Shown: positions 1 through 46,621 of the stretch, one piece after another
How positions within the stretch are numbered: position 1 is the stretch's first letter
Layout: each line of letters starts with the position of its first letter
Source of the DNA: an uncultured Bacteroidales bacterium
GTDB taxonomy: Bacteria > Bacteroidota > Bacteroidia > Bacteroidales > CAIXZF01
Direction of reading: 5' to 3'
Assembly (NCBI GenBank): GCA_903923925.1
Contig: CAIXZF010000070.1
Span: 1 to 59,018 of the forward strand
DNA length: 59,018 nt
Program-made: the position numbers and the translations under genes
The notes under the pieces: generated by a model
Seen by the model: only the letters and a program-made list of their open reading frames with translations
What the model was told of the DNA's origin: nothing
Databases searched by the model: none

Positions 1-3000
1 AACATAACCTATACTTATACAAACATATATGGTTGTACAAGTTCTGCGACCAATTCAATAAACGTAGTGGCATTGCCAAATGTTACCTGGACAAGCTCGC
101 TGCCTTCACAGTGTGCTTCTGCTACATCATATTCTCTGTCAGGAGGATTACCTGCAGGAGGAACATATTCAGGAACAGCTGTGAACGGAGGTGTTTTCAA
201 CCCTTCGGTTGCCGGAGCCGGTACCTACACACTAACTTATTCATTCAAAGATATCAATAACTGTATTAACGCTGCCACAAATACGATAGTGGTAAACCCA
301 TTGCCAGTGGTTTCTTGTACAGGAACGCTTGCATCACAGTGTGTTTCCGCCACAACTTATACGTTGTCCGGGTGTACTCCTGCCGGAGGAACATACACAG
401 GAACAGGAGTTACAGGCACAAATTTTAATGCGAGTGTTGCAGGTACCGGGTCTTTCGCTATAACCTATACTTTAACAAACAGCAATAATTGTACTTCCTC
501 TGCAACAAACTCTATAACAGTATTTCCTTCGCCAACAGCTCATGCTGCTGCAATTCAGGTATCACTTTGCTCAGGTTCAACAATTCAGTTAATTGGCAGT
601 TCAACTGGTGGTAGCGGATTAGGGTATGCTTATTCATGGTCGGGTCCTAATAACTTTACATCAACTCTACAGAATCCAATAATTATAAATTCACAAGTAA
701 ATAATTCAGGGACATATTTTCTGACAGTTACTGATGGAAATGGATGTACCTCAATAAATAGTTCATCTGTAGCAATAATTATTTTTCCTCTTCCTATAGC
801 CACTGCATCTGCAGCTCAAAATACTGTGTGTGTTGGGTCGACAATTAATTTATTGGGAAGTGCAAGTTCGGGCAGTGGAACAGCTTATACATTTAGTTGG
901 TCGGGAGCAAACGGATTCACTTCAAATTTGCAGAATCCCATTATTAATACAGCAGACCCTGCGTACAGTGGAAGTTATTACCTAACTGTCACTGATGGGA
1001 ATGCTTGCAGTTCAACAAATAGTGCAAATATTATTATTACACTTAATCCTATCCCTGCAGCAGCAGGGGTAATCACCTGTTCTGCATCCGTTTGCCAGGG
1101 GCAATCAGGCGTTGCGGTCAGTGTGCCAGCAATTTTAAATGCTTCTTCCTATGTATGGACATTGCCAATTGGTACAACTGTTATCAGTGGGGCAAACACG
1201 GCTAGTTTAATTGTAAACTTCAGTTCATCGGCTGCGACAGGTTCTCAGACTATAACAGTGAAAGGAAGCAATACTTGTGGTTTTGGACCTATTAGTACCT
1301 ATTATCTGAGTGTAAATCCATTGCCAGGAGCAATAACTTCGATAAGCGGAGCTGTTAGCGTTTGCTCAGGACAAACAGGTGTATCTTATGTAGCCGGGAA
1401 CTCGGCATCAGCCTCCAGTTACATTTGGACGCTTCCAACAGCTACCACAGGTACTTATAATTTAAATCAGGCAATACTAAATTTTGGGACTACATCAGGA
1501 AATATAACAGTAAAGGGCAGTAATTCCTGCGGTGATGGAACTGCATTTACTATTGGTATTACTGTAAATCCAACGCCAGTTATTGTATTTCCGAATTTAG
1601 CACCTGTGTGCTTAAACGCTGCTCCTTTTATGTTGAATGGTGCATCTCCTGCAGGAGGAACATACTCAGGAACTTCTGTGGCAGCAAACATTTTTAATCC
1701 ATCGGTATCCGGCTCAGGTACATTTCCAATAACATACACCTATACCAATGCACAGGCTTGTTCCAGCTCTGCGATAAAAAATCTGACGGTTAATCCACTA
1801 CCAATTGTAGCTCTTGGAAGTTTTAGTGCTGTTTGTGCTGATCATGCTCCAATAACACTGAGTGGAGGAAGTCCTTCAGGAGGTACATACAGTGGTACAG
1901 GAGTATCAGCAAATACCTTTAATCCGGCTGTTTCAGGTCCAGGTAACTTTACGATAACATATTCATATACAAATGCAATTGGTTGTTCAAATTATGCCTA
2001 CAGCACTATTACAGTTTATGCTATTCCTGTTGTTACATGGAATAATTCAAATGTAAGTCAATGCGTTTCCAGTACTTCCTACAGTTTAAGTGGAGGAAGT
2101 CCTGCCGGAGGTACTTATAGTGGTCCTGGCGTAAATGGGACCAATTTTAATGCAGGTATAGCTGGATCCGGAACACATACTTTGACTTATACCTATACAA
2201 ATTCAAATGCTTGCAGAGCTTCAATCACCAATACTATAGTAGTTAACCCTTTGCCAATTGCTAACGCAGGAACAAATCAAACGATTAACATTGGTCAGTG
2301 GACGGTATTAAGCGGAAGTGCCTCAAACGGTTCAGGCAATTATTCTTATCAATGGACACCAAGTGCAATGATTAGTGGACTTTCCAATATTGCAAATCCA
2401 CAAACGCTTAGTTTAAATTCTTCAACCACATTTAGTCTTGTAGTAACTGATTTAAGCACTGGATGTGCCAGCCTGCCATCTCAGGTAACAATAACAGTAG
2501 CGGGAGTTCCATTGAGTGTAACTGCCAATTCGAACCTAACAATAATTTGTAGCGGCAAATCTGTAAATATTAGTGCATTAGCTACTGGCGGAAGTACTAA
2601 TTACACCTATTCATGGAGTTCAGTTCCGGCTGGATTTACATCGACACAAGCAAATATCAATGGAGTTACACCTTTGGGAACTACAACGTATACTGTTGTT
2701 GTAAATGATGGGTTTAACACTGCTACATCTTCTGTTTTAGTGAACGTTAATCCCTTACCAAGTGTTTCGTTTACTGGAGTATTAGCACAACAGTGTATTT
2801 CATCAACTACCTACGCATTAACAGGAGGGTTGCCAGCAAATGGTACCTATTCTGGTACTGGCGTAACAGGAACAAATTTCAATGCCAGTATTGCTGGTAT
2901 TGGTACATTTACATTGACATACACCTTCCTGAACACCACGACCGGATGCACAAATTCCGCAACAAATACGATTACAGTTGTTGCTATACCAGTTGTTACA

Positions 3001-6000
3001 TGGAATACAACATTGCCAGGACAATGTATTAATTCAACTACTTTCCAGCTAACTGGAGGAAATCCGGCTGGTGGTACTTACGGTGGAGCAGGTGTTACTT
3101 CAGGCGTTTTTAATGCGTCAGTTGCAGGAGTTGGAACACATGTTTTAACATATTCATACAAAGATGCAAACAACTGTACCAATTCTGCTACCAAATCGAT
3201 AATTGTTAACTCACTGCCAATTGTAACATTCCCAGGACCATTAACCTCTGTGTGTATTTCAAGTACATCGTATTTGCTCTCCGGAGGAACTCCTTTAGGA
3301 GGAACATATAGCGGAGTGGGAGTAAGCGGCAACAACTTCAATGCAAGTGTAGCAGGTCTTGGTTTAAAATCAATTACGTACTCGTATACTGATGGCAACG
3401 GATGCGTTTCTTCAGTTTCTGCACCAATTACTGTAAATCCATTACCTGTAGTAACATTTACAGGAACAATACCAAACCAATGTTTATCATCGTCAACATA
3501 TACACTAACCGGTGGTAGCCCAACAGCTGGCGTATATAGTGGTGCCGGTGTTACAGGAACTAATTTCAATGCTTCTTTGGCTGGAATCGGAACATCTACA
3601 ATTTCGTTTACCTATACGAATGTTTACGGTTGTACAAATATTGCCACTAATGCAATTCTGGTTGTACCTCTTCCAACAGTGGCCTGGACGAGCTCATTGG
3701 CTTCTCAATGTGCCTATACGACAACCTATAATTTAGCGGGTGCAACTCCTATTGGTGGCACATATTCTGGCAATGGTGTTTCATTTGGTATTTTTAATCC
3801 GTCGACTGCCGGAGTGGGAACACATACCATGACTTATACCTACACAAATTTGGATGGTTGTACTTCATCCGTTACAAATACAATAGTTGTAAATCCACTG
3901 CCAACTGTATCATTTGCCGGCACTCTTGTTACGCAATGTGAATCGTCGACAACTTATGCCTTAACAGGCGGCTCTCCTGGCGGGGGACTTTATTCCGGTA
4001 CTGGAGTTTCTTCATCAAATTTTAATGCAAGTATTGCCGGGGCTGGTAACTTTTCACTAATCTACAGCTATACTAATCCGGCAACCGGATGTACAGGGTC
4101 AGCATCAAATACAATTCAAGTTAATCCATTGCCTGCTACTCCAGGAACAATTACCGGTCCTTCAACATTTTGCAAGGGTTCAACTCAAACATATTCGGTT
4201 GGAACTATTGCGAATGCACTTACCTATTTATGGACTGTTCCAACAGGAGCAACAATTACAACAGGATCAACTACAAATACAATTTCAGTAACATTCAGCT
4301 CAAATGCAATTAGCGGAGCAATTACCGTTAGAGGTGTAAACGCTTGTGGAAATGGACCTTTAAGCCAGGCCAGGAATGTAACTGTAAATAATATTCCAAT
4401 TGCCAATGCAGGAGCGGATCAGAATATAACAATCGGATCAACTGCTACTTTAAATGGCAGTGCAAGTTCAGGAACAGGTAGTTACTTCTATTCATGGTCT
4501 CCTTCAGCATCATTAAATAATTCAAATATCCAGAACCCAACAACAATTTCTCTTACAAACTCAATACAATATTGTTTAACTGTAACGGATGCATCAACAG
4601 CTTGTGTCAGTGCAGCAGATTGCATGATGGTTAATGTTAATGGTACACCATTGCAAATACTTGGCATTACAACAATTCCCAATCCTGCAACGATATGTAT
4701 TGGTGGTAGCTTACAATTAAATGCAACTGTAATAGGAGGTACTCAAAGTTATACCTACCTATGGGTATCAAATCCTGCTGGATTTACTTCAACTTTTTCT
4801 AATCCAGTTGTAACACCAACTTCTACTACAATATACACACTCTCTGTTTTTGATGGAATAAATACCGTTTCAAGTATAAAAACTGTAACTGTTAATCCAC
4901 TTCCTGCTATTGCCTTCCCGTCGCTGACTCAAATCTGCGTTAATGCTGCTCCTATTATTTTAAACACAGCAATACCAGCAGGTGGAAGCTATTCAGGAAT
5001 TGGAGTAAATGCAAACAGCTTTAGTCCCTCAGTTTCAGGAGTAGGCACCTTCCCAATAACCTATACTTACTTCAGCCCAACAACAGGATGTACAAATACA
5101 GCTACTAAAAATCAAGCGGTTAATCCTCAACCAACTGTAAGCTGGACCACAATTCTGCCAGGTAAATGTATTTCTGACACCGCCTTTCTATTGAATGGTG
5201 GGCTCCCTGTTGGTGGGACTTATGCCGGAAATGGTGTTGTGGCAGGAAAATTCAATCCATCTTCAGCTGGTACCGGAGTGCATACAATCAACTACATTTA
5301 TTCAGACATCAATGGATGTACAAAAACTGTTTCCAACACAATTACAGTTAATGCATTGCCGGCAGTAAGTTTTTCAGGAAACCTTACCCCTCAGTGTATC
5401 AGTTCAACAGCATATGCATTATCAGGTGGTTTGCCTTTGGGAGGAACTTACTCAGGAGCAGGTGTAAATAGTGTTTCAGGTGGATTTAATGCTAATATTG
5501 GGGGGCCTGGAATTCATACGATTACGTACACTTATACTAACAATAATGGATGTACCAATGCCGCAAGTAATACGATAAATGTTGTTCCCTTGCCAATGTA
5601 TAGTGTTAATAATGACACTTCAATTATGCCCGGAGCAACTGCCACATTATCAGTGACAAATATTTCAGGTAACGGACCGTTCACCTATCTCTGGAGCAAT
5701 GGATCAGCAAATTCTTCAATCCAGGTTTCTCCGAATTCAATAACGACATATTCAGTGACAGTAGATGATAATAATGGTTGTTCAAGAACCGATGAGGTAA
5801 CAGTAGATGTGAATGTAAGCAATGAGCTAACAATTTTACTTCCGAATTTAGCGAGTTGTTCCGGAAACGTAATATATCCAATTATAGTAAATAGTTTTAA
5901 TAATGTGGCTTCCATTTCCCTGACAATTAAATACAATAATCAATTTATTACTTATTCAGGTTATTCGAATCCATATTCAGTGCTTTCAAATGGGACATTA

Positions 6001-7380
6001 ATTGTTAATTCTACGAATACTTCTATTCAAATTGGATGGTTCTCGTTTACTCCGATTAGCATTTCTGAAGGAACATTGCTTGATTTAAATTTAATAGCCG
6101 CCCAAGGTACTTCTAATCTCGAATGGGATTTAGTTACACCAGGAGCATGTTATATAACAGATTTCAATGGTAACCAAATACCATTAATCAGTGAAAATGG
6201 ATCAATTACTACCCTGAGCTGTTCAACTGTTCAAGGCGTTTTCTCCTATGATAACCTGGTTTCAACACCACTAAGTAACTGTCAGGTTGAAGTAATCAGA
6301 GATACCGAATCAACTACAAAGGCAGTTACGAATAGTGCCGGGCAATTCAATTTTGGCAATCTGCCCGACGGAATCCACATTATCAATCCTTCTTGTCATA
6401 AGCCAGTTGGAGGTATAAATTCTACCGACGCATTATTAATACTAAAGCACTTTGTTAATTATATCACCTTAAGCGGGTGGAAGCTGAAAGCAGCAGATGT
6501 TGATGCAACTCATTTTATTAATGCAGCAGATGCCCTTATGATTGCAAAACGTTTTGTTGGATATATCAGTACATTTCCTGCCGGGGATTGGCTATGTGAA
6601 AAAGATACAATTAATGTAGCTGGTCCAACTACTATAACATCAAATCTCAAGGCTATCTGTTTTGGTGATGTTGATGGATCTTATGTTCCTCCTGCAAAAC
6701 TGGAGCCTGAAGTTTTCCTTATTGAAGAAGGAGAGCAAACGATTGCTTCGCTTGATTTAGTTGAAATTCCATTCAGAATAAGCGAGCCTGCCGATATTGG
6801 AGCAGTTTCATTAGTCATGAATATTGATCAAAATGTTGCTAAACTCCGGAATGTTAAAATGAATCAGGATGGAGAACTCTTGTATAATGTGATTGATAAT
6901 GAAGTCCGTATTTCCTGGTACAGTTTGATTCCGTTGCATTTAAATGCAGATGATGTGCTATTTTCTTTGGTATTGGAGCTGAATTCAAAAGCATTGAAGA
7001 ACAGTAATTCTGAATGGTTAAGTATATATGCCGGAAGCCAGATTGCAGATGCAGATGGGATTTTACTAAGAGGAGTTACCCTAAGCAGGCCAAGCTTAAA
7101 GCTGAATCAGAATGTTGCATGGCTCGGCCAGAATATCCCGAATCCCTTCTATGGGTTTACAACAATCCCATTCTATATACCAGAGAAAGCTGAAATGCGG
7201 CTTGTTGTAACGGATATGTTGGGACAAAAGGTATTTGCTTCAGAGAAACAACAATATGAGGCTGGAAATCAGGAGATCAATATCAAGGTTAATTTGCTGC
7301 CTGGAGTTTACATTTATCAGATTGAAGTTAATGGTTTGCAAGAGAATATCAATTTAAGCAGGAGGATGGTAGTAGAGTAA
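1..7380 (+). CDS. Giant secreted cell-surface protein, 5'-truncated by the window edge, exported by T9SS via a type A C-terminal domain. Built from more than 15 tandem ~90-aa Cys-containing Ig-like repeats plus PKD-like repeats, then two cohesin-like modules, a carboxypeptidase-regulatory-like beta-sandwich, and a dockerin-like module.
   Basis: The reading frame is open from nucleotide 1; the ORF-track 'start' at 67 is a GTG inside the repeat array. The repeat motif 'LP.V.W....QC.S.T.Y.L.GG.P.GGTYSG.GV....FN.S.AG.GT..ITYTYTN..GC..SATN.I.V' recurs throughout. PKD-like units have the form 'ANAG.DQ.I..GS...L.GSAS.GSG.Y.Y.WSP...NP....P..TT.Y.LTVTD...C'. The C-terminus 'NIPNPFYGFTTIPFYIPEKAEMRLVVTDMLGQKV...GVYIYQIEVNG' matches the Por_Secre_tail/T9SS type A CTD pattern. 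Confidence 0.85.
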   Translation, partial: NITYTYTNIYGCTSSATNSINVVALPNVTWTSSLPSQCASATSYSLSGGLPAGGTYSGTAVNGGVFNPSVAGAGTYTLTYSFKDINNCINAATNTIVVNPLPVVSCTGTLASQCVSATTYTLSGCTPAGGTYTGTGVTGTNFNASVAGTGSFAITYTLTNSNNCTSSATNSITVFPSPTAHAAAIQVSLCSGSTIQLIGSSTGGSGLGYAYSWSGPNNFTSTLQNPIIINSQVNNSGTYFLTVTDGNGCTSINSSSVAIIIFPLPIATASAAQNTVCVGSTINLLGSASSGSGTAYTFSWSGANGFTSNLQNPIINTADPAYSGSYYLTVTDGNACSSTNSANIIITLNPIPAAAGVITCSASVCQGQSGVAVSVPAILNASSYVWTLPIGTTVISGANTASLIVNFSSSAATGSQTITVKGSNTCGFGPISTYYLSVNPLPGAITSISGAVSVCSGQTGVSYVAGNSASASSYIWTLPTATTGTYNLNQAILNFGTTSGNITVKGSNSCGDGTAFTIGITVNPTPVIVFPNLAPVCLNAAPFMLNGASPAGGTYSGTSVAANIFNPSVSGSGTFPITYTYTNAQACSSSAIKNLTVNPLPIVALGSFSAVCADHAPITLSGGSPSGGTYSGTGVSANTFNPAVSGPGNFTITYSYTNAIGCSNYAYSTITVYAIPVVTWNNSNVSQCVSSTSYSLSGGSPAGGTYSGPGVNGTNFNAGIAGSGTHTLTYTYTNSNACRASITNTIVVNPLPIANAGTNQTINIGQWTVLSGSASNGSGNYSYQWTPSAMISGLSNIANPQTLSLNSSTTFSLVVTDLSTGCASLPSQVTITVAGVPLSVTANSNLTIICSGKSVNISALATGGSTNYTYSWSSVPAGFTSTQANINGVTPLGTTTYTVVVNDGFNTATSSVLVNVNPLPSVSFTGVLAQQCISSTTYALTGGLPANGTYSGTGVTGTNFNASIAGIGTFTLTYTFLNTTTGCTNSATNTITVVAIPVVTWNTTLPGQCINSTTFQLTGGNPAGGTYGGAGVTSGVFNASVAGVGTHVLTYSYKDANNCTNSATKSIIVNSLPIVTFPGPLTSVCISSTSYLLSGGTPLGGTYSGVGVSGNNFNASVAGLGLKSITYSYTDGNGCVSSVSAPITVNPLPVVTFTGTIPNQCLSSSTYTLTGGSPTAGVYSGAGVTGTNFNASLAGIGTSTISFTYTNVYGCTNIATNAILVVPLPTVAWTSSLASQCAYTTTYNLAGATPIGGTYSGNGVSFGIFNPSTAGVGTHTMTYTYTNLDGCTSSVTNTIVVNPLPTVSFAGTLVTQCESSTTYALTGGSPGGGLYSGTGVSSSNFNASIAGAGNFSLIYSYTNPATGCTGSASNTIQVNPLPATPGTITGPSTFCKGSTQTYSVGTIANALTYLWTVPTGATITTGSTTNTISVTFSSNAISGAITVRGVNACGNGPLSQARNVTVNNIPIANAGADQNITIGSTATLNGSASSGTGSYFYSWSPSASLNNSNIQNPTTISLTNSIQYCLTVTDASTACVSAADCMMVNVNGTPLQILGITTIPNPATICIGGSLQLNATVIGGTQSYTYLWVSNPAGFTSTFSNPVVTPTSTTIYTLSVFDGINTVSSIKTVTVNPLPAIAFPSLTQICVNAAPIILNTAIPAGGSYSGIGVNANSFSPSVSGVGTFPITYTYFSPTTGCTNTATKNQAVNPQPTVSWTTILPGKCISDTAFLLNGGLPVGGTYAGNGVVAGKFNPSSAGTGVHTINYIYSDINGCTKTVSNTITVNALPAVSFSGNLTPQCISSTAYALSGGLPLGGTYSGAGVNSVSGGFNANIGGPGIHTITYTYTNNNGCTNAASNTINVVPLPMYSVNNDTSIMPGATATLSVTNISGNGPFTYLWSNGSANSSIQVSPNSITTYSVTVDDNNGCSRTDEVTVDVNVSNELTILLPNLASCSGNVIYPIIVNSFNNVASISLTIKYNNQFITYSGYSNPYSVLSNGTLIVNSTNTSIQIGWFSFTPISISEGTLLDLNLIAAQGTSNLEWDLVTPGACYITDFNGNQIPLISENGSITTLSCSTVQGVFSYDNLVSTPLSNCQVEVIRDTESTTKAVTNSAGQFNFGNLPDGIHIINPSCHKPVGGINSTDALLILKHFVNYITLSGWKLKAADVDATHFINAADALMIAKRFVGYISTFPAGDWLCEKDTINVAGPTTITSNLKAICFGDVDGSYVPPAKLEPEVFLIEEGEQTIASLDLVEIPFRISEPADIGAVSLVMNIDQNVAKLRNVKMNQDGELLYNVIDNEVRISWYSLIPLHLNADDVLFSLVLELNSKALKNSNSEWLSIYAGSQIADADGILLRGVTLSRPSLKLNQNVAWLGQNIPNPFYGFTTIPFYIPEKAEMRLVVTDMLGQKVFASEKQQYEAGNQEINIKVNLLPGVYIYQIEVNGLQENINLSRRMVVE
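5821..6220 (+). other. Cohesin-like beta-sandwich module 1 within the giant protein
   Basis: 'NELTILLPNLASCSGNVIYPIIVNSFNNVASISLTIKYNNQFITYSG...' follows the cohesin-like pattern G..V.VP......I..L...YD...L. Tentative; no HMM was run. Confidence 0.35.
6409..6591 (+). other. Dockerin-like module with duplicated F-hand-like helices
   Basis: 'GGINSTDALLILKHFVNY...AADVDATHFINAADALMIAKRFVGY' shows two repeats, 'INSTDALLILKHFV' and 'INAADALMIAKRFV'. These resemble dockerin type I 'VNSTDLTLLKRYVL'. The Ca-loop Asp/Asn positions are only partly conserved. Confidence 0.5.
6733..6990 (+). other. Cohesin-like beta-sandwich module 2
   Basis: 'EQTIASLDLVEIPFRISEPADIGAVSLVMNIDQNVAKLRNVKMNQDGELLYNVIDNEVRISWYSL'. 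Confidence 0.35.
7129..7377 (+). other. T9SS type A C-terminal sorting domain
   Basis: 'QNIPNPFYGFTTIPFYIPEKAEMRLVVTDMLGQKVFASEKQQYEAGNQEINIKVNLLPGVYIYQIEVNGL'. Confidence 0.75.
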
Positions 7381-7513: not shown

Positions 7514-9253
7514 ATGCAAAAAAAATTGGTGCTTTTCTTTAGTTTTTTGACTATCATTTCTGGCGTCTACTCCCAGCAGGAGTCTGCTGTTCTGCGCATG
7601 TATAAAGAAGCAGATCTGGTTTTTCGTGTCAGAATTGCTGCAACTTCACTTTCCGAAACTCCTTACTTTACGCACGATTTGGGTACAGAGTGGTATTCCT
7701 TTCATTTTTCAATAGTACATAAATACAAACAAAGAACATCGAGTGCTGACAGTAATTTTCTTTTGCCTCATTTTTACAATGCTCCTCCAATTAGCGATAG
7801 TATTAAACCCGGGAAGGAGTACATTGTATTTCTGAAAGCTGACAGGCCAGCCGATGGATATTCGAATCAGCCTTCTGATTTTTCAGGCTACCAGGTAATC
7901 CTTAAGGATGGTCTTGTAATGTATTCAGATACATGGGATAAAAAACTGAAAGGACTTTTAAAGGAAACCTCATTTGACAGGGCTGTTTATGCTTGTTATT
8001 GGAAAGCTGTTAGGCGGAAAATTCATAGCATAATCAGAAAAGAAGCTTTTGTTCACGGCAGGAACACGAATACTTCAATGCAGCATCTAAACAGCTGGCT
8101 AGCTTCTCATCAGACTGTTGATGCCTTGCATGGAGATTCTTGCGGGATTCATATTGATATTTATCCTGGCTGGGTGGATGAGGGTATTCGGTTTCTTACA
8201 TCTTCAGGGCCAATCGAAAAACAGATGACAATTGGACTTGGGAAAGTAAGAAAATGGGGCTTTCTTTATCACTGGGTGGGTTTGCATTCTTCTTGTGATA
8301 AATTGATTTTCAGAGGTTTGTGGGATTCGCCCGGAGTATTGGAAGCATTTCGGAAAAATTGTCTGGACTTCAGGTTTCAAAGGATAAGCAATTGGAAAAG
8401 CCAAAAGGATATTGAAATTTCTACTGTACATTTTTACGATACAATTACGCCTGTTTCAATGACAAGTCCACTGATCCGGATAAAAGTGAAGCTGCTTAAC
8501 AGGTCGGCTGGTCCTTTGAATGTTCTCTGGCCCGACAAACAGGATGATGGATGGGAGATCTTTCTCTTTCGGATGCTGGAGAAAGAGGGGGGATTCTGCA
8601 AAGAAGATGGCGAATTTCTCGAAATGCCTCCCTTAACTTCCATTGGTCCGTCGATGGTCAGGCTGATGCCAGGAGATTCTCTGGTTGGCTGGCATAGTTT
8701 TAATGATCCTTTTTGTTGCGATACTGATCCCACAGCCTGCCATGACCTTTCAGCTCTTACTGAGGGGGACTGGAAAACAGGACTAGTTTACAAACCTATG
8801 ATTTCTGCAGGTGATACCAGTGTTTACTGGAACCCTGAAGGTGGTAGCCGGATTTTATGGAACAATAGGTCAATCCACATTAATTCAGTAAAAGAGGCAA
8901 AACAGATGACCGTCAGAGCCAGGTTACTCGAGAAGACTGGCGATTACTTGAATTACCACGGACAAAGAGGCCGGTATGATGCCCTGGTGGCAGTTATTGA
9001 GGTTCCCGGAGATTGTCCATTCAAACAAGGAGATACAATTGCCTGCCGTTTTCCTGTAAATATCCATTATTTATTGAGGTTGGCTGAATCCCGGCCCGCA
9101 ATGAATGCCGAATTAATGACAGCTGGTGATATGCTGGAAATTGATTTCCTGGCAAATTATCCTCCGGATGAATTCAACTTAAAATCAGGCCAAAGTATAA
9201 AAAATTATCTGCTTCTGAATTCTATGAATACACTGCGGTTTATCGAGAGGTAA
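7514..9253 (+). CDS. Secreted protein of unknown function, 579 aa, Trp/Cys-rich
   Basis: ATG start. N-terminal signal peptide 'MQKKLVLFFSFLTIISGVYSQQ'. No recognizable catalytic motif and no T9SS CTD. Confidence 0.7.
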   Translation: MQKKLVLFFSFLTIISGVYSQQESAVLRMYKEADLVFRVRIAATSLSETPYFTHDLGTEWYSFHFSIVHKYKQRTSSADSNFLLPHFYNAPPISDSIKPGKEYIVFLKADRPADGYSNQPSDFSGYQVILKDGLVMYSDTWDKKLKGLLKETSFDRAVYACYWKAVRRKIHSIIRKEAFVHGRNTNTSMQHLNSWLASHQTVDALHGDSCGIHIDIYPGWVDEGIRFLTSSGPIEKQMTIGLGKVRKWGFLYHWVGLHSSCDKLIFRGLWDSPGVLEAFRKNCLDFRFQRISNWKSQKDIEISTVHFYDTITPVSMTSPLIRIKVKLLNRSAGPLNVLWPDKQDDGWEIFLFRMLEKEGGFCKEDGEFLEMPPLTSIGPSMVRLMPGDSLVGWHSFNDPFCCDTDPTACHDLSALTEGDWKTGLVYKPMISAGDTSVYWNPEGGSRILWNNRSIHINSVKEAKQMTVRARLLEKTGDYLNYHGQRGRYDALVAVIEVPGDCPFKQGDTIACRFPVNIHYLLRLAESRPAMNAELMTAGDMLEIDFLANYPPDEFNLKSGQSIKNYLLLNSMNTLRFIER

Positions 9254-9464: not shown

Positions 9465-12400
9465 ATGAAAGCAACTTCTACCTTAATTATTTCGACTGTT
9501 TTTTTCAGTCTGTTCTTCCTATTTTCGCAGCATGTTTCAGCCCAGGGAACAAAGAGCGGAATGAAGTCTAATTCTCTAAATCCAACCAATTCAACCGAAA
9601 AGGTTACAAAGCAATTACAGCCTACTGATTTGATAAATCCGATTTCAGTGAAATTGAATTGTCTTGACGACATTATGCAGGTAGCAGATCCTGGCCTTTG
9701 CGGAGCTATCGTTGAATATCCAATGCCGACATATGAAGGTGGCGTACTTACAATAGTTGGTCAGATGTCTGGTACTTTTTTTTCTGTTGGAGAAACATAT
9801 GTTTTTTTTGTTGTTACCGGTGATAACGGGAATCAGATTTCGTGTCCAATGTTAGTTACAATACTGGATATTTACAGTCCTACGATTATTACTTATCCTC
9901 CGATGATATCTGCAAATACCAATCCCGGAGAAAATTACGCCACCAATCCTGGTATTACTGCTCCTGTTGCCACTGATGAATGTGGTGTAGCCGGGCTAGT
10001 AGCAACAAATAATGCCCCAACTGAGTTCCCTATCGGGACTACAACAGTTATATGGACCATACATGATGCTGCAGGAAATTCAGTAAGCTGTTCACAGTTG
10101 GTTACTGTTTCAGATCTTGAACCTCCACTTGTGCAAGCGCCTGCAAATAAAACTGTTTCAGCGGATCAGGGTTTATCTTCTGCCAGTAATGTAGATTTGG
10201 GTACCCCTGTGGCAACAGATAACGATATTGTAAGCAGTATTTTAAACGATGCTGCTGCTGCCTTTGTACTTGGCAATACTGCCATAACCTGGACAGCCAC
10301 AGATGCCTCAGGAAACACTTCTACTGCTACGCAAATTGTTACAGTTGTGGATCTTGAGCCACCTGTGATAATAGCTGCGGCCAATCTGACCTTACAAACA
10401 GAGGCCGGAAATTGTTCAAACTCATCTGCTTCAATTGGATTGCCCCTGGCTAACGACAATGATTTCATTGCCTCAGTAAGCAGCGACAGACCTGAAGCAT
10501 TCCCTCTCGGAACTACCACAGTTACATGGACTGCCACTGATGCAAGCGGTAACACATCTACAGCCACTCAGCTGGTAACTATTATTGATTCTCAGGCCCC
10601 AACACTTGTGAGCGCCCCTTCAACTATTACAGCCACAACCAACCACGGCTTTTCCTATTCAACCGGAATATCCTTAACTCCCCCTGAATTTTCAGATGAT
10701 TGTTCAGTGAATATAACTTTAACTAATAATGCTCCTGTACAATACGCTCTCGGAAATACTACTATAACATGGACGGCAACAGATGAGGCTGGTAATATAT
10801 CAACAACAAATCAACTTGTTATTGTGAATGATAATGAACCACCCATTCTGACATGTTCATCGAATATGACCAGTGAACTATGCAATAATGTAGTTAATTA
10901 TACAATAACAGCTTCCGATAATAGTTCGAACCCTGTTACTATTGTTTCAAATCCACCTTCGGGAAGCACTTTTCCTGTAGGTTCAACTACAGTAACTTCT
11001 GTTGCAACAGATTTAGCGGGCAATTCATCGAGCTGCAGTTTTACGGTAACAATTCTTCCGAATTCAGGTGCAATTGCATCTTACAATACTGGTTTATGCA
11101 CAGGAACTACCTTATCGCTTTTTGCAAGCGGAGGTGTAACCTATGCATGGTCGGGGCCGGGTTGTTTTCATTCCAATGTTCAGAACCCGACGCGTTGCAG
11201 CACAACTTCTGCAATGGCAGGGAATTATACTGTAACGGTTACAAACAGCAATGGATGTACAAGTTCGGCAGCTGTTAATGTTGTGCTAAATCCTCTGCCA
11301 GGAACACCAACATCAATATCAGGTACTGCTTCAATTTTAAGAGGAGGAACCTATACTTATATCACAACTATATCAAATGCCAGCAGTTACATCTGGAGTT
11401 ACACAGGAACAGGAGCCACAATTACAGGTACTGGAAATACTGTAAAAATTGCGTTTTCCAGTACTGCCACAAATGGAATTTTGAAAGTAAAAGGACAAAA
11501 TAGTTGTGGTTTTGGAGCAATAGCAAGTGTAAATATTACAACAACTCCGGGTTCTTGTATCCATGTTTACAGTTCGAAACATCATGTAGGTGAGGGTTGT
11601 CATCCAACTACAGTTAAATCGCCCTGTGCTCCGATAAATTCTTCAGGAACACAGTGCGGGTTCAAGGTATACAAGTCGCATGACATTGGTTACACTGCAA
11701 AGAGAAATTGTTTCAGCAATATTTATCATGGTTCTAATTCCGGGGGTTCCAGTGGTTCCAGCTATAATCCGGGCTCCGATGTTACATCATGTGTAAATAT
11801 TACCGGCCCTGAATTAAGCAATTGCGGTGGCAGTCCATCCTACAAATATGATATTGTTGTTCCTGCAGGAAAGCGTTACCTGGTTGTAGGCGAATATGCG
11901 GGTGGAGAGAATCAGAATGGGAGTACTCAAAGTAATGTATGTTCAGGAAAAAGAACATACAATAAGAACAATCATTCAGGTTATTGTGATGATGATGATG
12001 ATGGCGATGATGATGGTGATGACGACCCTGCTTTCCAGGCAGGTTGTTCCAAAGACATGTATATCCAGATTATTGAGGATGCTTATGGAAAAGTAAGGCC
12101 GGCAAATACGGATTGTATTCCGGGTTCATTGTTGTTAATCACTGCTCCGAACTATATTGAATTTACAGATAGCATTGAACTTCTTCCGATTGTTTATGAA
12201 TCTGTTGAAGGTGCATGGGAAGTTGGAGTTACTGCTACACCTCCTGAAGGATTCTACAGTGTTCAGGATTCATTACAGGCACAGCTTAACACTTCAAACT
12301 TAAGTGTTTTACAGTTTAGTCTTGTTGATACCGGCAGCGTGTGGACTGCAACCACTGTAAATACTACCCTGAAACATAACAATAAGGATATCAGGCATAC

Positions 12401-12728
12401 TGTAAATCCATCAATGATCGATCATAAAGTTAAAAAGGACTATCTTTCACAGAACTTCCCGAATCCATTCAGCGGGGAAACTACTATCCCATATCTCCTG
12501 CCAAACGATAGTAAGGTAAAATTATCAGTGTATGATATTTATGGTAGAGAATTAGTAGTTCTTGTAAATAAAGAACAGAAAAAAGGAAGTTATTCTGAAA
12601 CCTGGAAAGCTTGTACTTCTTCGGGTTGCAATCTTACTTCGGGAGCTTATCTTGTAAGACTACAGGTTACCTCTACGGAAAACGGAAATACGACTATCAA
12701 CAATAAAACTATGGTTTACATTAAATAG
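9465..12728 (+). CDS. T9SS cargo protein with HYR (hyalin-repeat) domains and PKD-like domains, then a Cys-rich region with a poly-Asp/Gly tract and a type A CTD
   Basis: Signal peptide 'MKATSTLIISTVFFSLFFLFSQHVSAQG'. About five HYR-type units, e.g. 'DLEPPVIIAAANLTLQTEAGNCS...FPLGTTTVTWTATDASGNTSTATQLVTIID'. PKD-like units 'GLCTGTTLSLFASGGVTYAWSGPG...GNYTVTVTNSNGCTS'. The acidic tract 'CDDDDDGDDDGDDD' lies at about nt 11989-12027. The C-terminus 'NFPNPFSGETTIPYLLPNDSKVKLSVYDIYGRELVVL' is a T9SS CTD. Confidence 0.85.
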   Translation: MKATSTLIISTVFFSLFFLFSQHVSAQGTKSGMKSNSLNPTNSTEKVTKQLQPTDLINPISVKLNCLDDIMQVADPGLCGAIVEYPMPTYEGGVLTIVGQMSGTFFSVGETYVFFVVTGDNGNQISCPMLVTILDIYSPTIITYPPMISANTNPGENYATNPGITAPVATDECGVAGLVATNNAPTEFPIGTTTVIWTIHDAAGNSVSCSQLVTVSDLEPPLVQAPANKTVSADQGLSSASNVDLGTPVATDNDIVSSILNDAAAAFVLGNTAITWTATDASGNTSTATQIVTVVDLEPPVIIAAANLTLQTEAGNCSNSSASIGLPLANDNDFIASVSSDRPEAFPLGTTTVTWTATDASGNTSTATQLVTIIDSQAPTLVSAPSTITATTNHGFSYSTGISLTPPEFSDDCSVNITLTNNAPVQYALGNTTITWTATDEAGNISTTNQLVIVNDNEPPILTCSSNMTSELCNNVVNYTITASDNSSNPVTIVSNPPSGSTFPVGSTTVTSVATDLAGNSSSCSFTVTILPNSGAIASYNTGLCTGTTLSLFASGGVTYAWSGPGCFHSNVQNPTRCSTTSAMAGNYTVTVTNSNGCTSSAAVNVVLNPLPGTPTSISGTASILRGGTYTYITTISNASSYIWSYTGTGATITGTGNTVKIAFSSTATNGILKVKGQNSCGFGAIASVNITTTPGSCIHVYSSKHHVGEGCHPTTVKSPCAPINSSGTQCGFKVYKSHDIGYTAKRNCFSNIYHGSNSGGSSGSSYNPGSDVTSCVNITGPELSNCGGSPSYKYDIVVPAGKRYLVVGEYAGGENQNGSTQSNVCSGKRTYNKNNHSGYCDDDDDGDDDGDDDPAFQAGCSKDMYIQIIEDAYGKVRPANTDCIPGSLLLITAPNYIEFTDSIELLPIVYESVEGAWEVGVTATPPEGFYSVQDSLQAQLNTSNLSVLQFSLVDTGSVWTATTVNTTLKHNNKDIRHTVNPSMIDHKVKKDYLSQNFPNPFSGETTIPYLLPNDSKVKLSVYDIYGRELVVLVNKEQKKGSYSETWKACTSSGCNLTSGAYLVRLQVTSTENGNTTINNKTMVYIK

Positions 12729-16381: not shown

Positions 16382-17260
16382 ATGGAAAACCCCGGACTCA
16401 GTATTATTGTACCAGCCTTTAATGAGGCGGTTAATCTTGAAATAATCTTACCGCAGCTTATTGATTATTCTTTGAAACGACAGTGGCAAATAATTCTGGT
16501 AAACGATGGCTCTTCAGATTTTACCAGAACTTTCCTGAATAATTTCGTTAATGAAAGCAATCTTACTATTTTTCATCATAAAGTTAACAAGGGTTATGGA
16601 GCGGCTTTAAAAACTGCTATAAATGCAAGTAATACAGAATATTGTATAACTTTTGATGCCGATGGGCAACATTATACTGAAGATATTGACAGCCTTTTAG
16701 ACCACATTATTCAAAATGATGCCGACATGGTTGTTGGTTCACGTAAGGGATTAAAGTCAGCTTCAATAATTCGGGGCTTGGGGAAAACAATAATCAGGAT
16801 AATTGCGAGGATTCTGATGCCTGTACCTATACATGATATAAATTCAGGTATGAAAATCTTCAGAACAGATCTGGCTAAAAAATATGCTTATCTCGGTCCG
16901 GACACCATGTCGTTCAGTGATACGTTTACGCTTGTTTTCATCAATAACAAACATCTTGTTTTAGAAAAGGCCATCCGGATAAAAGATAGAATCAGCGGCC
17001 AGAGCACGATTGGCATTCAAACTGCTTTTCAGACGATTATGGAGATAATTAATATTGTTATTCTCTTCAATCCCATGAAAATATTTCTGCCGGTTTCTTT
17101 GATTTGTATCTTTTTTACTTTGCTTTGGGGACTGCCAATAGCCTTTATGGGAAGAGGAGTTAGCACAGGTTCCTTGTTAGGAATAATTTCAGGGCTCTTC
17201 TTTTTCCTGATGGGACTTATGGCTGAACAGTTGAGTTTGATACGGAAAAGACAGAATTGA
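16382..17260 (+). CDS. GT2 glycosyltransferase with two C-terminal TM helices. Polyprenyl-phosphate sugar synthase-like, in the GtrB/DPM1/ArnC class.
   Basis: 'LSIIVPAFNEAVNLE', 'VNDGSSD', 'FDADGQH'. The C-terminal hydrophobic segments are 'IFLPVSLICIFFTLLWGLPIAF' and 'LLGIISGLFFFLMGLMA'. Confidence 0.8.
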   Translation: MENPGLSIIVPAFNEAVNLEIILPQLIDYSLKRQWQIILVNDGSSDFTRTFLNNFVNESNLTIFHHKVNKGYGAALKTAINASNTEYCITFDADGQHYTEDIDSLLDHIIQNDADMVVGSRKGLKSASIIRGLGKTIIRIIARILMPVPIHDINSGMKIFRTDLAKKYAYLGPDTMSFSDTFTLVFINNKHLVLEKAIRIKDRISGQSTIGIQTAFQTIMEIINIVILFNPMKIFLPVSLICIFFTLLWGLPIAFMGRGVSTGSLLGIISGLFFFLMGLMAEQLSLIRKRQN

Positions 17261-18051
17261 TGCAACAGGCTGATCATACTTTTATTATTCCTGCCTTTGG
17301 AAATTCGGATTTCCTTGAAGCATGTATTCTCTCGCTGAAACAACAGACTATTCCAGGTAAAATACTGATTACAACATCAACACCTTCGGTATTTCTGACT
17401 GAAATTGCAGAGAAATATCAGCTTGAAATCATTGTGAATGAAAGTAAGACTGGTTTGGCCAGCGACTGGAGTTTCGCCTATAAAGCATGTACTAGCAAAT
17501 ACCTTACACTTGCTCATCAGGATGATTTGTATAATACTAACTATGCAGAAACCTTTATTAAAGAGGCTGAAAAACATGGGAATATTGACTGTCTTATCCT
17601 ATTATCTGATTATAATGAGTTGAAAATAAATAGCTTACGTAATAGGTCTGTAGTTATCTTTATTAAGAAGATATTGTTATTGCCGTTTCTTTTTAATAAT
17701 AGCCTTCGTAAGCGTATTTCAAAAAACTTGCTTCTTGTTTTTGGAAATCCTGTTGCCTGCCCTTCGGTAATGTTTAATGTTGAAAACATCGGGAGCTTTG
17801 AATTTAACAGCGAATATCTGTATAATGTTGATTGGGAAGCCTGGATCCGGCTGGCAAAAAGAAAAGGCAGCTTTGTATATATAAAAAAGAAAATGATGGG
17901 CCACCGCCTGCATAGAGAATCGCAAACCAGCATACAGATTGAGAGCACTATCAGGCAGAAGGAAGAGGAAAAAATTCTGAAATCGATATGGGGGAAATGG
18001 GTAGGGGGGATTCTATTTTTCTTCTATGGTTTTGGGGGGAAATTCAATTAG
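17260..18051 (+). CDS. Glycosyltransferase family 2-like protein
   Basis: The likely ATG at 17260 overlaps the upstream TGA (tgATG); the ORF-track start at 17257 is a TTG. 'HTFIIPAFGNSDFLEACILSLKQQT' is typical of a GT2 N-terminus. Confidence 0.6.
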   Translation: MQQADHTFIIPAFGNSDFLEACILSLKQQTIPGKILITTSTPSVFLTEIAEKYQLEIIVNESKTGLASDWSFAYKACTSKYLTLAHQDDLYNTNYAETFIKEAEKHGNIDCLILLSDYNELKINSLRNRSVVIFIKKILLLPFLFNNSLRKRISKNLLLVFGNPVACPSVMFNVENIGSFEFNSEYLYNVDWEAWIRLAKRKGSFVYIKKKMMGHRLHRESQTSIQIESTIRQKEEEKILKSIWGKWVGGILFFFYGFGGKFN

Positions 18052-18761: not shown

Positions 18762-18794
18762 TTTAACTATCGATCAGGATTTAAAGATAATGGA

Positions 18795-20354: not shown

Positions 20355-20395
20355 TATTTTGAGGATTTAATTTTAATCGGCTAAATTATAGAAAA

Positions 20396-21688: not shown

Positions 21689-21693
21689 GATAT

Positions 21694-22428: not shown

Positions 22429-22512
22429 CCAGATTGTTTCGCGGTTGTATTTTCGGTTTTGGGAACCTTCTATCTCATATGAAGCTTTCAAATTCGGCTT
22501 TGTAAAAGTGTT

Positions 22513-35210: not shown

Positions 35211-35228
35211 GGGGATTTGTTTTAACTT

Positions 35229-35414
35229 TTAATTTAATTTCATCATCAGAAAATCATCCAGATTGATTTGTTTTATTCCCTGGTCGATAAGCTGATACAA
35301 GAGGTAACTTTTTCCAACTCTTCGCTGTCCTGTAATTACCTTAATGATTTGTTTGCCAATAAACAGTTGAATTTTAGCAATATATTCCGGCCGGACTGTG
35401 TATTTATGTTTCAT
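35229..35414 (-). pseudogene. Remnant 61-aa N-terminal fragment of an AAA-family ATPase gene (Walker A only)
   Basis: '...KVITGQRRVGKSYLLYQLI' is a Walker A motif resembling the N-termini of ~400-aa Bacteroidota AAA/DUF4143 ATPases. The ORF stops after 61 aa, and the space downstream is occupied by the next gene. Confidence 0.4.
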
Positions 35415-35443
35415 GTATATCGTAAAAAAAACTGATGAATAAT

Positions 35444-37368: not shown

Positions 37369-37375
37369 ACGATTT

Positions 37376-38365: not shown

Positions 38366-38366
38366 G

Positions 38367-41049: not shown

Positions 41050-41053
41050 GGTA

Positions 41054-44668: not shown

Positions 44669-46621
44669 ATGAAAACAATTACAGTGTTATATTTCAGTAT
44701 ATTCCTGGTGTTGCAGATAGCTAACGGGCAAACAATAAGCTACGCCACCAGCAATTCTCCGGTCTGTGCTGGTTCCACAATAGAACTGAAGGCTGCATGT
44801 GGTCAATCCTTCGTCTGGACAGCACCAAATGGCTGGACATCAACCCAGCAAAACCTGACAATAACCAATATGCAAATGGCGAATGCCGGAACCTACAACC
44901 TCACGATGTGGGATAATGAAGGGGTTATTCATAGTGCATCGGTTGTTGTTGTGGTAAACCCAATTCCGGTGGCGAATGCAGGTATGGATGTTAATTGCAG
45001 TTGTGGCTTCGGGTGTCCCTTATCCGGTTCTGCCAGCGGAGGAGCAGGTGGTCCATATAATTTTCACTGGGATCCTGCTGAAGAACTGGTCAATGCAAAT
45101 GTTCAGAATCCATTAACAGTATGGTCAACTACAGCAACGAAATTTTATCTTACTGTTATTGAACAGTCTACAGGTTGTTCCAGTCGTAAGGATTCTGCCA
45201 ATGTTAATATTTATGGCTGTATTGGTTGTTCGGTGTCCTCTATTCCTTCGGAAATCTGCCAGGGAGGGTTTGCACATATTAAGACACAACTCTTTTTTGA
45301 TACTATTGATCATATATATAATTGGACTTCAAATCCGCCGGGTGTTGTATCTTCATATGCCGAGTTTAATGTGAATCCAACAGTAACAACCACTTATTAC
45401 CTGGAAACACATTCAAGTTGGTTTGAGTTTTACCATGCCTACGACACTGTAACTGTTACAGTATTAAATACTGCACCTCAATACATTGGCGGGATAAGCG
45501 GTCCTGAGACGGTCTGTAAAGGATTAAGGAGCATTCAATACAGTGTACAGCCAGTACCTGATGCAAGTTCTTATCAATGGTCGCTTCCTGCAGGTGTTAC
45601 AGGCCAGAGCACTACAAGCACAATCACTGTAGATGTCGGGCAGGATGCGGTCTCAGGAAATATAGGTGTTGCAGCACAGAATGCCTGTGGTTTGAGCCCG
45701 GGATCAACAAAAGCGATTACTTTTAATACTTGTCCTGTAGAAGTGAAGCTGGATACATTTATTTCATGCGTGGGAAATCAGGTTATTGTACCAGTTAAGG
45801 TGAAGAATTTCAGGGATATCGGGAAGTTTTCGCTCTCCTTAAATTATGATTCAGCCAAAGTATCGTTTACTGCGTATCAAAGTATAAACGCAGGTATTGA
45901 GCCATTATCAGTTACAAATACAGCCGGAATTCCTTCAACGATAAGCATATCATCCACTACTCCTTTCGGGTCATTAATAAGCGACGGGGAACAGCTTGTC
46001 AATCTTGTTTTTACCTGTAAAAATGGGCTTGCCCCACTTGTCTGGAGCACTACAGCACTCTTCAATTCAACGTTTTACAGTCCCTGTGGCGAGCTTTTGC
46101 CAGCCACATTAATAAACGGATTGCTTAGGAGCGGAGTTCAGTTGTTTGGGATTGTCCGATATAACAATGTGGTCAATTCACCACTTCACAGTGTTAACGT
46201 TACATTAAAACAAAACGGAGTAATTAAGGGAGAGGTCGTTACAGATCAGAATGGGCTTTACAGCTTTCCGGATGTTTGTCCGGGAAATTATACCGTACAG
46301 GCACACAGCACTCAGCCATGGGGTGGATGCAACTCCATCGATGCCCTGCTTATCCTCAAACATTTTGTTGAAGTTGCCCTGTTGGATGGCTTGTCTTTAC
46401 AAGCTGCTGAAACAGATAATTCTGGCTACATTAACAGTGCTGATGCATTATTGGTATTAAAACGGTTTACTGGCTTAAGCAGTTCTTTCCCGGCAGGAGA
46501 TTGGGTGTTTGAAGAGAAAGCCTTTACAGTGCCATTTAATGGAAATTCACAGATAGATCTCAAGGGACTCTGCAAAGGAGATGTAAACGGATCGTTTGTA
46601 CCGGAAGTTGGTAATCCGTGA
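44669..46621 (+). CDS. Secreted protein with PKD-like domains, a cohesin-like module, a carboxypeptidase-regulatory-like beta-sandwich and a C-terminal dockerin-like module. No T9SS CTD.
   Basis: The ATG at 44669 gives the signal peptide 'MKTITVLYFSIFLVLQIANGQ'; the ORF-track start at 44627 lies inside the palindrome. Cohesin-like region 'VGNQVIVPVKVKNFRDIGKFSLSLNYDSAKVSFTA'. Dockerin-like region 'CNSIDALLILKHFVEV...ETDNSGYINSADALLVLKRFTGL'. Confidence 0.75.
   Translation: MKTITVLYFSIFLVLQIANGQTISYATSNSPVCAGSTIELKAACGQSFVWTAPNGWTSTQQNLTITNMQMANAGTYNLTMWDNEGVIHSASVVVVVNPIPVANAGMDVNCSCGFGCPLSGSASGGAGGPYNFHWDPAEELVNANVQNPLTVWSTTATKFYLTVIEQSTGCSSRKDSANVNIYGCIGCSVSSIPSEICQGGFAHIKTQLFFDTIDHIYNWTSNPPGVVSSYAEFNVNPTVTTTYYLETHSSWFEFYHAYDTVTVTVLNTAPQYIGGISGPETVCKGLRSIQYSVQPVPDASSYQWSLPAGVTGQSTTSTITVDVGQDAVSGNIGVAAQNACGLSPGSTKAITFNTCPVEVKLDTFISCVGNQVIVPVKVKNFRDIGKFSLSLNYDSAKVSFTAYQSINAGIEPLSVTNTAGIPSTISISSTTPFGSLISDGEQLVNLVFTCKNGLAPLVWSTTALFNSTFYSPCGELLPATLINGLLRSGVQLFGIVRYNNVVNSPLHSVNVTLKQNGVIKGEVVTDQNGLYSFPDVCPGNYTVQAHSTQPWGGCNSIDALLILKHFVEVALLDGLSLQAAETDNSGYINSADALLVLKRFTGLSSSFPAGDWVFEEKAFTVPFNGNSQIDLKGLCKGDVNGSFVPEVGNP
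46328..46507 (+). other. Dockerin-like module with two F-hand-like repeats
   Basis: 'NSIDALLILKHFV' and 'TDNSGYINSADALLVLKRF'. The second repeat retains the D-N-G-N-D Ca-loop spacing. Confidence 0.5.

Follow-up and report, generated by a model that had tools for sequence, protein, structure and literature searches.

We identified a cassette of cohesin and dockerin modules fused to a sorting domain of the type IX secretion system (T9SS) at positions 5821-7380 of a 59,018-nucleotide stretch of DNA from an uncultured Bacteroidales bacterium (contig CAIXZF010000070.1; the whole stretch is referred to here as the window). Two cohesins, m1 and the diverged m4, enclose a transthyretin-like sandwich (m2) followed by an atypical dockerin (m3), and m4 is succeeded by a type A C-terminal sorting domain (CTD). 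The string m2-m3-m4-CTD is a conserved C-terminal cassette found on many unrelated passengers. The comparative sequence data favour a real assembly system, and our preferred interpretation, to which we give a probability of about 0.55, is a T9SS-anchored, non-cellulolytic cohesin-dockerin system by which secreted proteins would be recruited for display. The protein that carries the segment is divided as follows:
1..5820, forward strand: passenger region of PKD_6/Ig-like repeats (PKD_6 4e-42, plus Ig_2/Ig_7)
5821..6219, forward strand: m1, cohesin module, candidate free receptor
6220..6396, forward strand: m2, CarboxypepD_reg/transthyretin-like beta-sandwich, directly N-terminal to the dockerin
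6397..6696, forward strand: m3, extended dockerin (Dockerin_1, 23.3 bits; dockerins 2ccl_B/1ohz_B of the PDB)
6697..7131, forward strand: m4, diverged cohesin between the dockerin and the CTD (hhalign, 2xdh_A profile match, AlphaFold2 and Foldseek)
7132..7380, forward strand: T9SS type A CTD and stop codon

The segment forms the C-terminal end of a frame-1 open reading frame (ORF) whose start lies 5' of the window and whose stop codon is at 7378-7380. A full-length form of the protein (P0060) is 4,482 residues long; the window carries its last 2,459 residues, and 2457/2459 positions of its C-terminus are identical to the translation of the window. P0060 starts with the signal peptide MKLINKAIIVFILGIFLIVPSELLAQA and its body is built from PKD_6 and Ig-like repeats, and the gene product is therefore a giant secreted repeat protein, for which "adhesin" is a plausible label. 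In a scan of the last 559 residues, the C-terminus was matched by the Pfam model Por_Secre_tail (28 bits, cut-off 27) and by the NCBIfam model TIGR04183 (32.5 bits, cut-off 23). The match lies at the extreme C-terminus of a protein with an N-terminal signal peptide, and its fold agrees with solved T9SS CTDs, in line with the type A CTD claimed in an earlier reading of this DNA from the sequence alone (the sequence-only reading). No T9SS core genes were found within the window, which contains several other CTD-bearing cargo genes instead.

To assign the modules upstream of the CTD, local hidden Markov models (HMMs) were built from homologues (cassette residues 1-133 for m1, 136-192 for m2, 193-292 for m3 and 296-430 for m4). 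The outcome of the Pfam search that the sequence-only reading had proposed was mixed: Dockerin_1 exceeded its cut-off on m3, m1 stayed under the Cohesin cut-off, m2 was matched by CarboxypepD_reg below the cut-off (25.9 bits, cut-off 32.3), and m4 had no Pfam match in the last 559 residues. The calls below the cut-off were upheld because AlphaFold2, hhalign, PDB-profile and Foldseek evidence agree. PF00963 is borne by homologues of m1, the local HMMs of m1 and m4 match one another's module reciprocally, and hhalign aligned m4 with m1 over 103 columns with a probability of 97.8% (E 6.8e-13). The m4 profile matched the Archaeoglobus cohesin 2xdh_A (E 6.9e-8). Modelled alone in AlphaFold2, m4 reached a predicted local distance difference test score (pLDDT) of 90.6 and a predicted template modelling score (pTM) of 0.84, and the first 48 matches in the Foldseek PDB list for this model were all cohesins. 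The cohesin assignment agrees with the nine-stranded jelly-roll beta-sandwich of ~140 residues seen in solved cohesins.

Structure prediction of the 519-residue cassette with AlphaFold2 (pLDDT 93.2, pTM 0.73) supported the cohesin and dockerin folds, with three helices exactly at the dockerin site and beta structure elsewhere. A pTM of 0.73 across five domains suggests that the modules take up a defined arrangement. The leading Foldseek matches in the PDB for the cassette were fragments of CipA comprising Coh9-X-DocII (4fl4, 3kcp; ~305 aligned columns), and single cohesins such as 2xdh (TMt 0.82) were returned as well. In both structure and sequence, 2xdh is the best or near-best match to m1 and m4 alike, and m2 matches the transthyretin-like domains of carboxypeptidase D. 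The module string cohesin, carboxypeptidase-regulatory-like, dockerin, cohesin, as named in the sequence-only reading, was thus borne out by HMM searches, hhalign, AlphaFold2 and Foldseek.

The dockerin m3 is atypical. Its parts, all on the forward strand, are:
6409-6429, forward strand: degenerate first calcium loop
6415-6456, forward strand: helix 1, INSTDALLILKHFV
6496-6531, forward strand: canonical second loop, DVDATHFINAAD
6517-6558, forward strand: helix 3, INAADALMIAKRFV
after helix 3, forward strand: FPAGDW, then a beta extension of four short strands
6658-6693, forward strand: terminal motif, CFGDVDGSYVPP, conserved across 227 modules

With 23.3 bits, m3 scores above the Dockerin_1 cut-off of 22.9 bits in Pfam, and it shows the duplicated segment of ~22 residues with helices 1 and 3 that characterizes type I dockerins (PF00404). 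The two helices that the sequence-only reading had described as duplicated (6415-6456 and 6517-6558) are present, and the two 21-residue repeats share 11/21 identities. Searched alone against the PDB, the m3 segment matched 8x39 at 6.8e-6 and 2ccl_B/1ohz_B at 0.0035-0.03; the family profile matched 31 PDB sequences, nearly all of them solved dockerin chains (best E 4.5e-13). The m3 helix residues agree with those of bona fide dockerins. AlphaFold2 places the helices at cassette residues 201-211, 219-225 and 235-246 and the strands at 257-280. A chance or low-complexity origin of the helices was ruled out, as the HMM, PDB and structural scores lie far above noise.

Dockerins of the canonical kind have two contiguous 12-residue calcium loops with ligands at positions 1, 3, 5, 9 and 12, and loop 1 of m3 departs from this pattern. 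In the window protein its positions 1, 3 and 5 are C192, K194 and V196 (consensus x, K, W), and only the ligands N200 (position 9) and D203 (position 12) are kept. Loop 2 is canonical (D226-V-D228-A-T230...N234...D237). When the m3 profile is aligned with the Clostridium thermocellum Xyn10B dockerin 2ccl_B, the alignment begins at position 6 of loop 1. At the other end, profile positions 67-99 are covered by no solved dockerin among the PDB matches. FPAGDW, after helix 3, is followed by the four strands and then by a terminal segment of the form C-x-G-D-V-[DN]-G-[ST]-[YF]-x-P. Across 227 distinct modules this terminal motif is as conserved (G89 99%, D90 100%, N/D92 98%, S/T94 94+4%) as the recognized calcium ligands (N 96-97%, D 99-100%), and the AlphaFold confidence stays at ~93 over the motif and dips only in the five-residue linker after it. 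Proteins that end in a dockerin stop just past the GD-x-[DN]-x-[ST] motif. Since the two halves of an EF-hand loop can be recognized here, the first in G-D-x-[DN]-x-[ST] and the second in GG-x-N-x-x-D, we infer a split first calcium site. The first calcium of m3 is probably held by a split loop that is completed by the returning C-terminal segment: ligands 9 and 12 would come from the N-terminal GG-x-N-x-x-D, and ligands 1, 3 and 5 from GD-x-[DN]-x-[ST]. As a separate observation, six proteins of 417-762 residues (P0048, P0050-P0053 and P0161) consist of 5-10 tandem dockerin-like stretches that cover profile positions 5-67 only and are without the beta extension.

Word-indexed homology searches found the m2-m3-m4-CTD string on passengers as varied as PKD, HYR, beta-helix, FISUMP, peptidase M14 and polysaccharide deacetylase. 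When 1.84 billion cluster representatives (50% identity) were searched exhaustively in HMMER for the m3 profile, 19,886 matched at E<=1e-3, ordinary dockerins included; the number fell to 2,743 at E<=1e-10 and to 238 at E<=1e-30. Nearly all of the best 150 span the entire 98-position profile. The architectures of 141 newly retrieved representatives were sorted with the local HMMs. The cassette m2-m3-m4-CTD stands without m1 in 51/141 and is preceded by one to three m1 cohesins in ~23/141; a terminal m2-m3 with 0-4 residues left over is found in ~35/141, and m2-m3 right behind the signal peptide in ~10/141. Full-length m3 modules are nearly always preceded by m2, both among the top 150 representatives and at the genomic loci; the few exceptions are ORFs with m3 only or m3-m4. 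In CTD-bearing proteins, m4 is almost always found between m3 and the CTD, and the linker from m3 to m4 is ~5 residues. With m4 lying right behind m3 in the cassette, the two look like parts of one integral unit, perhaps paired in cis, and less like a free pair. No stand-alone m4 (without m3) was found among the representatives, the loci or 1,262 word-index candidates searched with the m4 profile; this last negative is weak, as the word index yielded just these 1,262 candidates. The same search, with respect to anchors of the type signal peptide-m4-CTD, gave three matches, all of them gene fragments or genes with mis-called starts.

Cohesins of the m1 type also occur without a dockerin, as arrays of three or four (P0035, P0037, P0042) and in proteins running from a signal peptide over a cohesin to a CTD (P0021, P0022); at locus L069 a small gene for a signal peptide, m1 and a CTD adjoins a cassette gene. 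The m2-m3 pair in turn is found at N-terminal or internal positions in P0013, P0018 and P0047. The last of these, a HYR giant of 5,359 residues from a Bacteroidota metagenome-assembled genome (MAG; MCX6270090.1), has m2-m3 behind the signal peptide and m1x3-m2-m3-m4-CTD at the C-terminus, and so combines an N-terminal plug with C-terminal sockets.

The scan for further dockerin-bearing proteins that the sequence-only reading had suggested found a second one in the window, discussed below, and many more elsewhere. Genomes were scanned with one strict peptide pattern derived from nine closer sequences, so that the copy numbers per genome are lower bounds. The scan found 71 loci in ~11 MAGs (Bacteroidota, Bacteroidales, Lentimicrobiaceae and one Ignavibacteria), with at least 22 loci in one lake MAG and at least 12 in another. 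Cassette-type and dockerin-terminal genes share genomes, in which dozens of paralogous dockerins are present. The best genomic match of the window dockerin (67% identity) is in the Ignavibacteria MAG CAIOZA01 (locus L003), where a protein with three m1 cohesins followed by m2-m3-m4 runs up to the contig end; the cassette thus extends beyond Bacteroidota proper. One locus (L020) has an in-frame TAG at 3226-3228 in an otherwise intact m2-m3-m4-CTD gene. Programmed readthrough of a stop between m3 and m4-CTD was considered and ruled out, as the codon lies inside the beta extension; the gene is probably a pseudogene or the TAG a sequencing error.

The proteins that end in m2-m3 have ordinary Sec signal peptides and are without a CTD; one MAG encodes at least 11 of them. 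Twenty dockerin-terminal proteins were scanned for cargo domains, and these were Peptidase_C25 with its propeptide (three cases), Peptidase_M14 (two) and a GH129-like domain (one), next to GEVED, Laminin_G_3, SBBP and DUF4394. No cellulase or CBM3 was detected among the 20. The cargo consists mainly of peptidases and adhesin-like repeat proteins, not cellulases. At three loci a dockerin-terminal gene is followed by a paralogue that ends in a CTD:
L007, 1303-5162: tandem paralogue pair of an M14 or C25 peptidase, one copy ending in m2-m3 and the other in a CTD
L012, 2086-5383: tandem paralogue pair of the same kind
L056, 526-5676: tandem paralogue pair of the same kind

The M14 pair shares 54% identity over 463 residues and the C25 pair 44% over 661 residues. 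Both aligned pairs part only at the C-terminal tag, which is the m2-m3 dyad (X-Doc) on one copy and the CTD on the other. A further class of proteins, 190-206 residues long, consists of a signal peptide and m2-m3 only (L049, 2068-2685 and 2689-3303, a tandem pair; L009, 104-673; L071, 2986-3594). These passenger-free X-dockerins could serve as caps, competitors or regulators of sockets.

According to the local HMMs, only two proteins within the window carry a dockerin: the giant protein and a protein of 664 residues. The latter is made up as follows (Pfam and local HMMs):
44669..46621, forward strand: 664-residue protein with signal peptide, Ig/PKD_6, m1, m2 and m3, without CTD
45731-46132, forward strand: m1 cohesin (Pfam Cohesin, 29 bits, passing the cut-off)
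46139-46309, forward strand: m2 (CarboxypepD_reg)
46310-46606, forward strand: m3 dockerin (local HMM)

Its modules score 152 bits (m1), 74 bits (m2) and 144 bits (m3) with the local HMMs, and the protein ends 4 residues past the FVPE that trails its GDVNGS motif. It is a candidate docking partner or adaptor.

These observations can be combined into a model of surface display by recruitment. In related genomes, many dockerins are the C-terminal module of CTD-less secreted enzymes, and others are part of CTD-anchored proteins that have one to three extra cohesins. By analogy to established T9SS cargo, the CTD would carry the folded giant protein through the T9SS and would then be exchanged for an outer-membrane anchor. 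The architecture suggests that m2-m3 acts as an X-module/dockerin dyad, as in clostridial scaffoldins, that m4 is the foot of the stalk, where m3 of the same chain probably binds it, and that the m1-type cohesin, as a free socket, is a likelier receptor than m4. CTD-less proteins that carry a Sec signal and terminate in m2-m3 would plug into m1 sockets and so be displayed at the surface; candidates are the 664-residue protein of the window and a set of enzymes from related genomes (gingipain-like C25 peptidases, M14 carboxypeptidases and the GH129-like enzyme). The giant protein would serve as an adhesin-like fibre and docking platform, with the 664-residue protein, which has one cohesin and one dockerin, as an adaptor. 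Such a system would be a non-cellulolytic counterpart of the cellulosome, anchored by way of the T9SS. The sequence-only reading had proposed cohesin-dockerin assembly on a T9SS-anchored scaffold, and this holds in part: the modules do sit on a CTD-bearing protein and paralogous dockerins are abundant, and on the other side m3 and m4 of the cassette look like a built-in unit.

Several observations weigh against recruitment. The window m1 itself reached 17.9 bits with the Pfam Cohesin model, under the cut-off of 24.1. Comparison of terminal with cassette dockerins revealed no class-specific surface residues (maximum Jensen-Shannon divergence 0.21), and sequence alone therefore gives no cue to the cohesin partner of each dockerin; the nearest neighbours of a dockerin belong to its own class in 81% of cases vs 53% by chance. 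The rule that m4 never occurs without m3 is biased, because the architecture samples were gathered with a dockerin query. Finally, there is no known route over the outer membrane for dockerin proteins without a CTD. One improbable scenario addresses this last point: uncultured Bacteroidota, and probably an Ignavibacteria relative as well, could have a large T9SS-linked "display-some" built on a new type of dockerin with a split first calcium site. X-Doc enzymes, without an outer-membrane export signal of their own, would dock in the periplasm onto the cohesins of CTD-bearing carriers, and the folded complexes would pass through the T9SS together.

The evidence also has to be weighed against interpretations in which nothing is recruited or the partners are different ones. 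The cassette might be a structural stalk only, with m2-m3-m4 as a rigid, calcium-stabilized spacer that is locked in cis and recruits nothing in trans; it would hold passengers off the outer-membrane anchor, or help presentation or processing of the CTD. The fixed module order, the very short linkers, the high pLDDT and pTM of the whole cassette and the fact that m4 was not seen apart from m3 all fit such a spacer. It leaves unexplained, however, the ~35-40% of modules in which m2-m3 alone ends a CTD-less secreted enzyme, as well as the N-terminal m2-m3 modules, the proteins of 190-206 residues that are signal peptide and m2-m3 only, the independent arrays of m1 cohesins and the genes for a signal peptide, m1 and a CTD. 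We consider this interpretation unlikely for the cassette family, both as a spacer and in the role of holding off passengers or assisting the CTD.

If instead the dockerin of one cassette bound m1 or m4 of the next protein, chains or a lattice of adhesins would form on the surface, and proteins such as the 664-residue one, with both a cohesin and a dockerin, would be adaptors or chain extenders. That both module types occur in the giant protein and in the 664-residue protein is consistent with this, as are the candidate contact positions, which do not tell terminal from cassette dockerins. Self-association is reportedly what work from the Bayer laboratory suggested for Archaeoglobus proteins with a cohesin and a dockerin. 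Such self-assembly, including the chain-extender role, appears rather improbable here, as 51 of the ~75 cassette proteins have m4 only and no m1, and polymerization would demand that m3 and m4, although only ~5 residues apart, do not pair with each other in cis. Still less probable is that m2-m3 is an alternative sorting or attachment tag for a ligand other than a cohesin (a surface glycan or lipopolysaccharide, a T9SS or export component, or another receptor), the cohesins being incidental. The dyad does stand at the exact place of the CTD in the tandem paralogues, the dockerin is atypical, and the m2-m3-terminal proteins have no other known means of crossing the outer membrane. Against a tag of this kind, m2-m3 at N-terminal and internal positions is unlike a C-terminal secretion signal, cohesins share proteins, genomes and neighbourhoods with m2-m3, and the helix residues correspond to those of true dockerins. 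Recruitment for surface display is the interpretation that we retain.

In textbooks, assembly by cohesins and dockerins is the principle on which Gram-positive cellulosomes are built, and cohesins and dockerins outside cellulosomes have long been known; Peer et al. are said to have surveyed such non-cellulosomal modules in FEMS Microbiol Lett in 2009 (cited in PMC8542988). The cassette is most similar in architecture to the C. thermocellum CipA Coh9-X-DocII/SdbA system (3kcp, 4fl4, 2b59), which has the same order of cohesin, beta-sandwich "X" and dockerin, in which a sandwich accompanies the dockerin as m2 does here, and in which the type II cohesin of the anchoring protein SdbA provides the tie to the cell surface. 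Unlike in CipA/SdbA, m4 as the anchoring cohesin belongs to the same chain as the dockerin, and a T9SS CTD takes the place of the S-layer homology repeats. Furthermore, m2 is transthyretin/CarboxypepD_reg-like, so that its likeness to an X-module is an analogy of position, and the dockerin of the window type differs by its degenerate first loop and by the beta extension. The cargo is peptidases rather than cellulases, CBM3 was absent from the proteins scanned, and the organism is a diderm. Related MAGs do contain what a cellulosome would need in the way of parts, namely many dockerin-bearing proteins per genome and multi-cohesin scaffoldin candidates (m1x3-m2-m3-m4-CTD proteins and four-cohesin arrays), but dockerin-borne cellulases or hemicellulases and a cellulose-binding module were not found in the 20 dockerin-terminal proteins scanned. 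In functional terms the system does not qualify as a cellulosome. With the non-cellulosomal modules, such as the cohesin 2xdh of Archaeoglobus fulgidus, it shares the occurrence of cohesin and dockerin in non-cellulolytic organisms, sometimes within one protein.

A putative cellulosome-like complex with a CTD-anchored cohesin scaffoldin and dockerin-bearing enzymes has been described for Ca. Stygibacter (Cloacimonadota); the enzymes have signal peptides and C-terminal dockerins and include a gingipain-like C25 peptidase (PMC8542988). The overall logic of that proposal is the same as here. It concerns another phylum, has InterPro domains as its sole basis, and does not include an X-Doc-cohesin-CTD cassette, an atypical dockerin or paralogue pairs (PMC8542988). 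For Chlorobium chlorochromatii, a cohesin-dockerin link between Cag_2037 and Cag_2038 has been proposed with an AlphaFold 3 model (bioRxiv 10.64898/2026.03.19.712371). These are likewise giant Ig-repeat surface proteins of the FCB group with a putative cohesin-dockerin contact, but they differ in export by the type I secretion system, in an RTX passenger, in being a single pair instead of dozens of paralogues and in the absence of a CTD cassette. The sequence-only reading had described a cellulosome-like architecture outside Clostridia; the architecture is indeed similar, but the novelty was overstated in view of these proposals for Cloacimonadota and Chlorobiota, and the cargo is mainly peptidases. 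Dockerin Pfam matches in Bacteroidales have been mentioned in passing (PMC6487960, PMC10266427). In the literature searched, no account was found of the m2-m3-m4-CTD cassette, of the extended, split-loop dockerin or of CTD/X-Doc paralogue pairs. With respect to known T9SS cargo, the giant protein resembles Porphyromonas gingivalis RgpB (Ig-like + CTD) in its N-terminal signal peptide, passenger, beta-sandwich and type A CTD at the extreme C-terminus. T9SS cargo of the RgpB type is not known to have a cohesin or dockerin, and some C25 and M14 paralogues described here have, unlike such cargo, lost the CTD in favour of m2-m3.

Elsewhere in the window, a 579-residue ORF (7514-9253, forward strand) directly 3' of the giant gene had no Pfam match at E<=0.01. 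Three more large T9SS cargo genes are present, in none of which a cohesin or dockerin was detected with Pfam or the local HMMs. These genes and two gene clusters are located as follows:
9465-12728, forward strand: T9SS cargo with HYR x6, PKD and a type A CTD
46756-51939, reverse strand: T9SS cargo with PKD_5 x7, Ig_7 and CHU_C (type B CTD)
51979-56910, reverse strand: T9SS cargo with LTD, CARDB, a MAM-like domain and a type A CTD
16382-22491 and 27088-28380: polysaccharide synthesis and export block with three GT2, RgpF, a Wzt/Wzm-type ABC transporter and GT1/GT4
28447-42268, reverse strand: unusual cluster with five PQQ_2/BamB-like beta-propeller proteins

A tie between the polysaccharide block and the surface glycan that anchors T9SS cargo is speculative. 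In the beta-propeller cluster, one propeller protein is fused to Fer2_4, Fer4_20 and NAD_binding_8 (867 residues); the cluster also encodes a 794-residue fusion of a NuoE-like 2Fe-2S domain, NuoF (Complex1_51K, NADH_4Fe-4S) and Fer4, and two further 4Fe-4S proteins.

To our knowledge, little is known of how T9SS cargo is organized on the Bacteroidota surface past its anchoring to anionic lipopolysaccharide (A-LPS). The split EF-hand dockerin with its beta extension would, if real, add an orthogonal plug-socket pair for synthetic biology. Peptidases that trade a CTD for a dockerin dyad raise a further problem, namely the path by which partners without a CTD get through the outer membrane; if they do hitch-hike through the T9SS, the tandem CTD/X-Doc paralogues would be versions of one enzyme that are sent to the surface in two different ways. 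A conserved and highly paralogous cassette fused to a T9SS sorting domain offers a way, open to testing, in which diderm bacteria could build complexes of several proteins on their surface.

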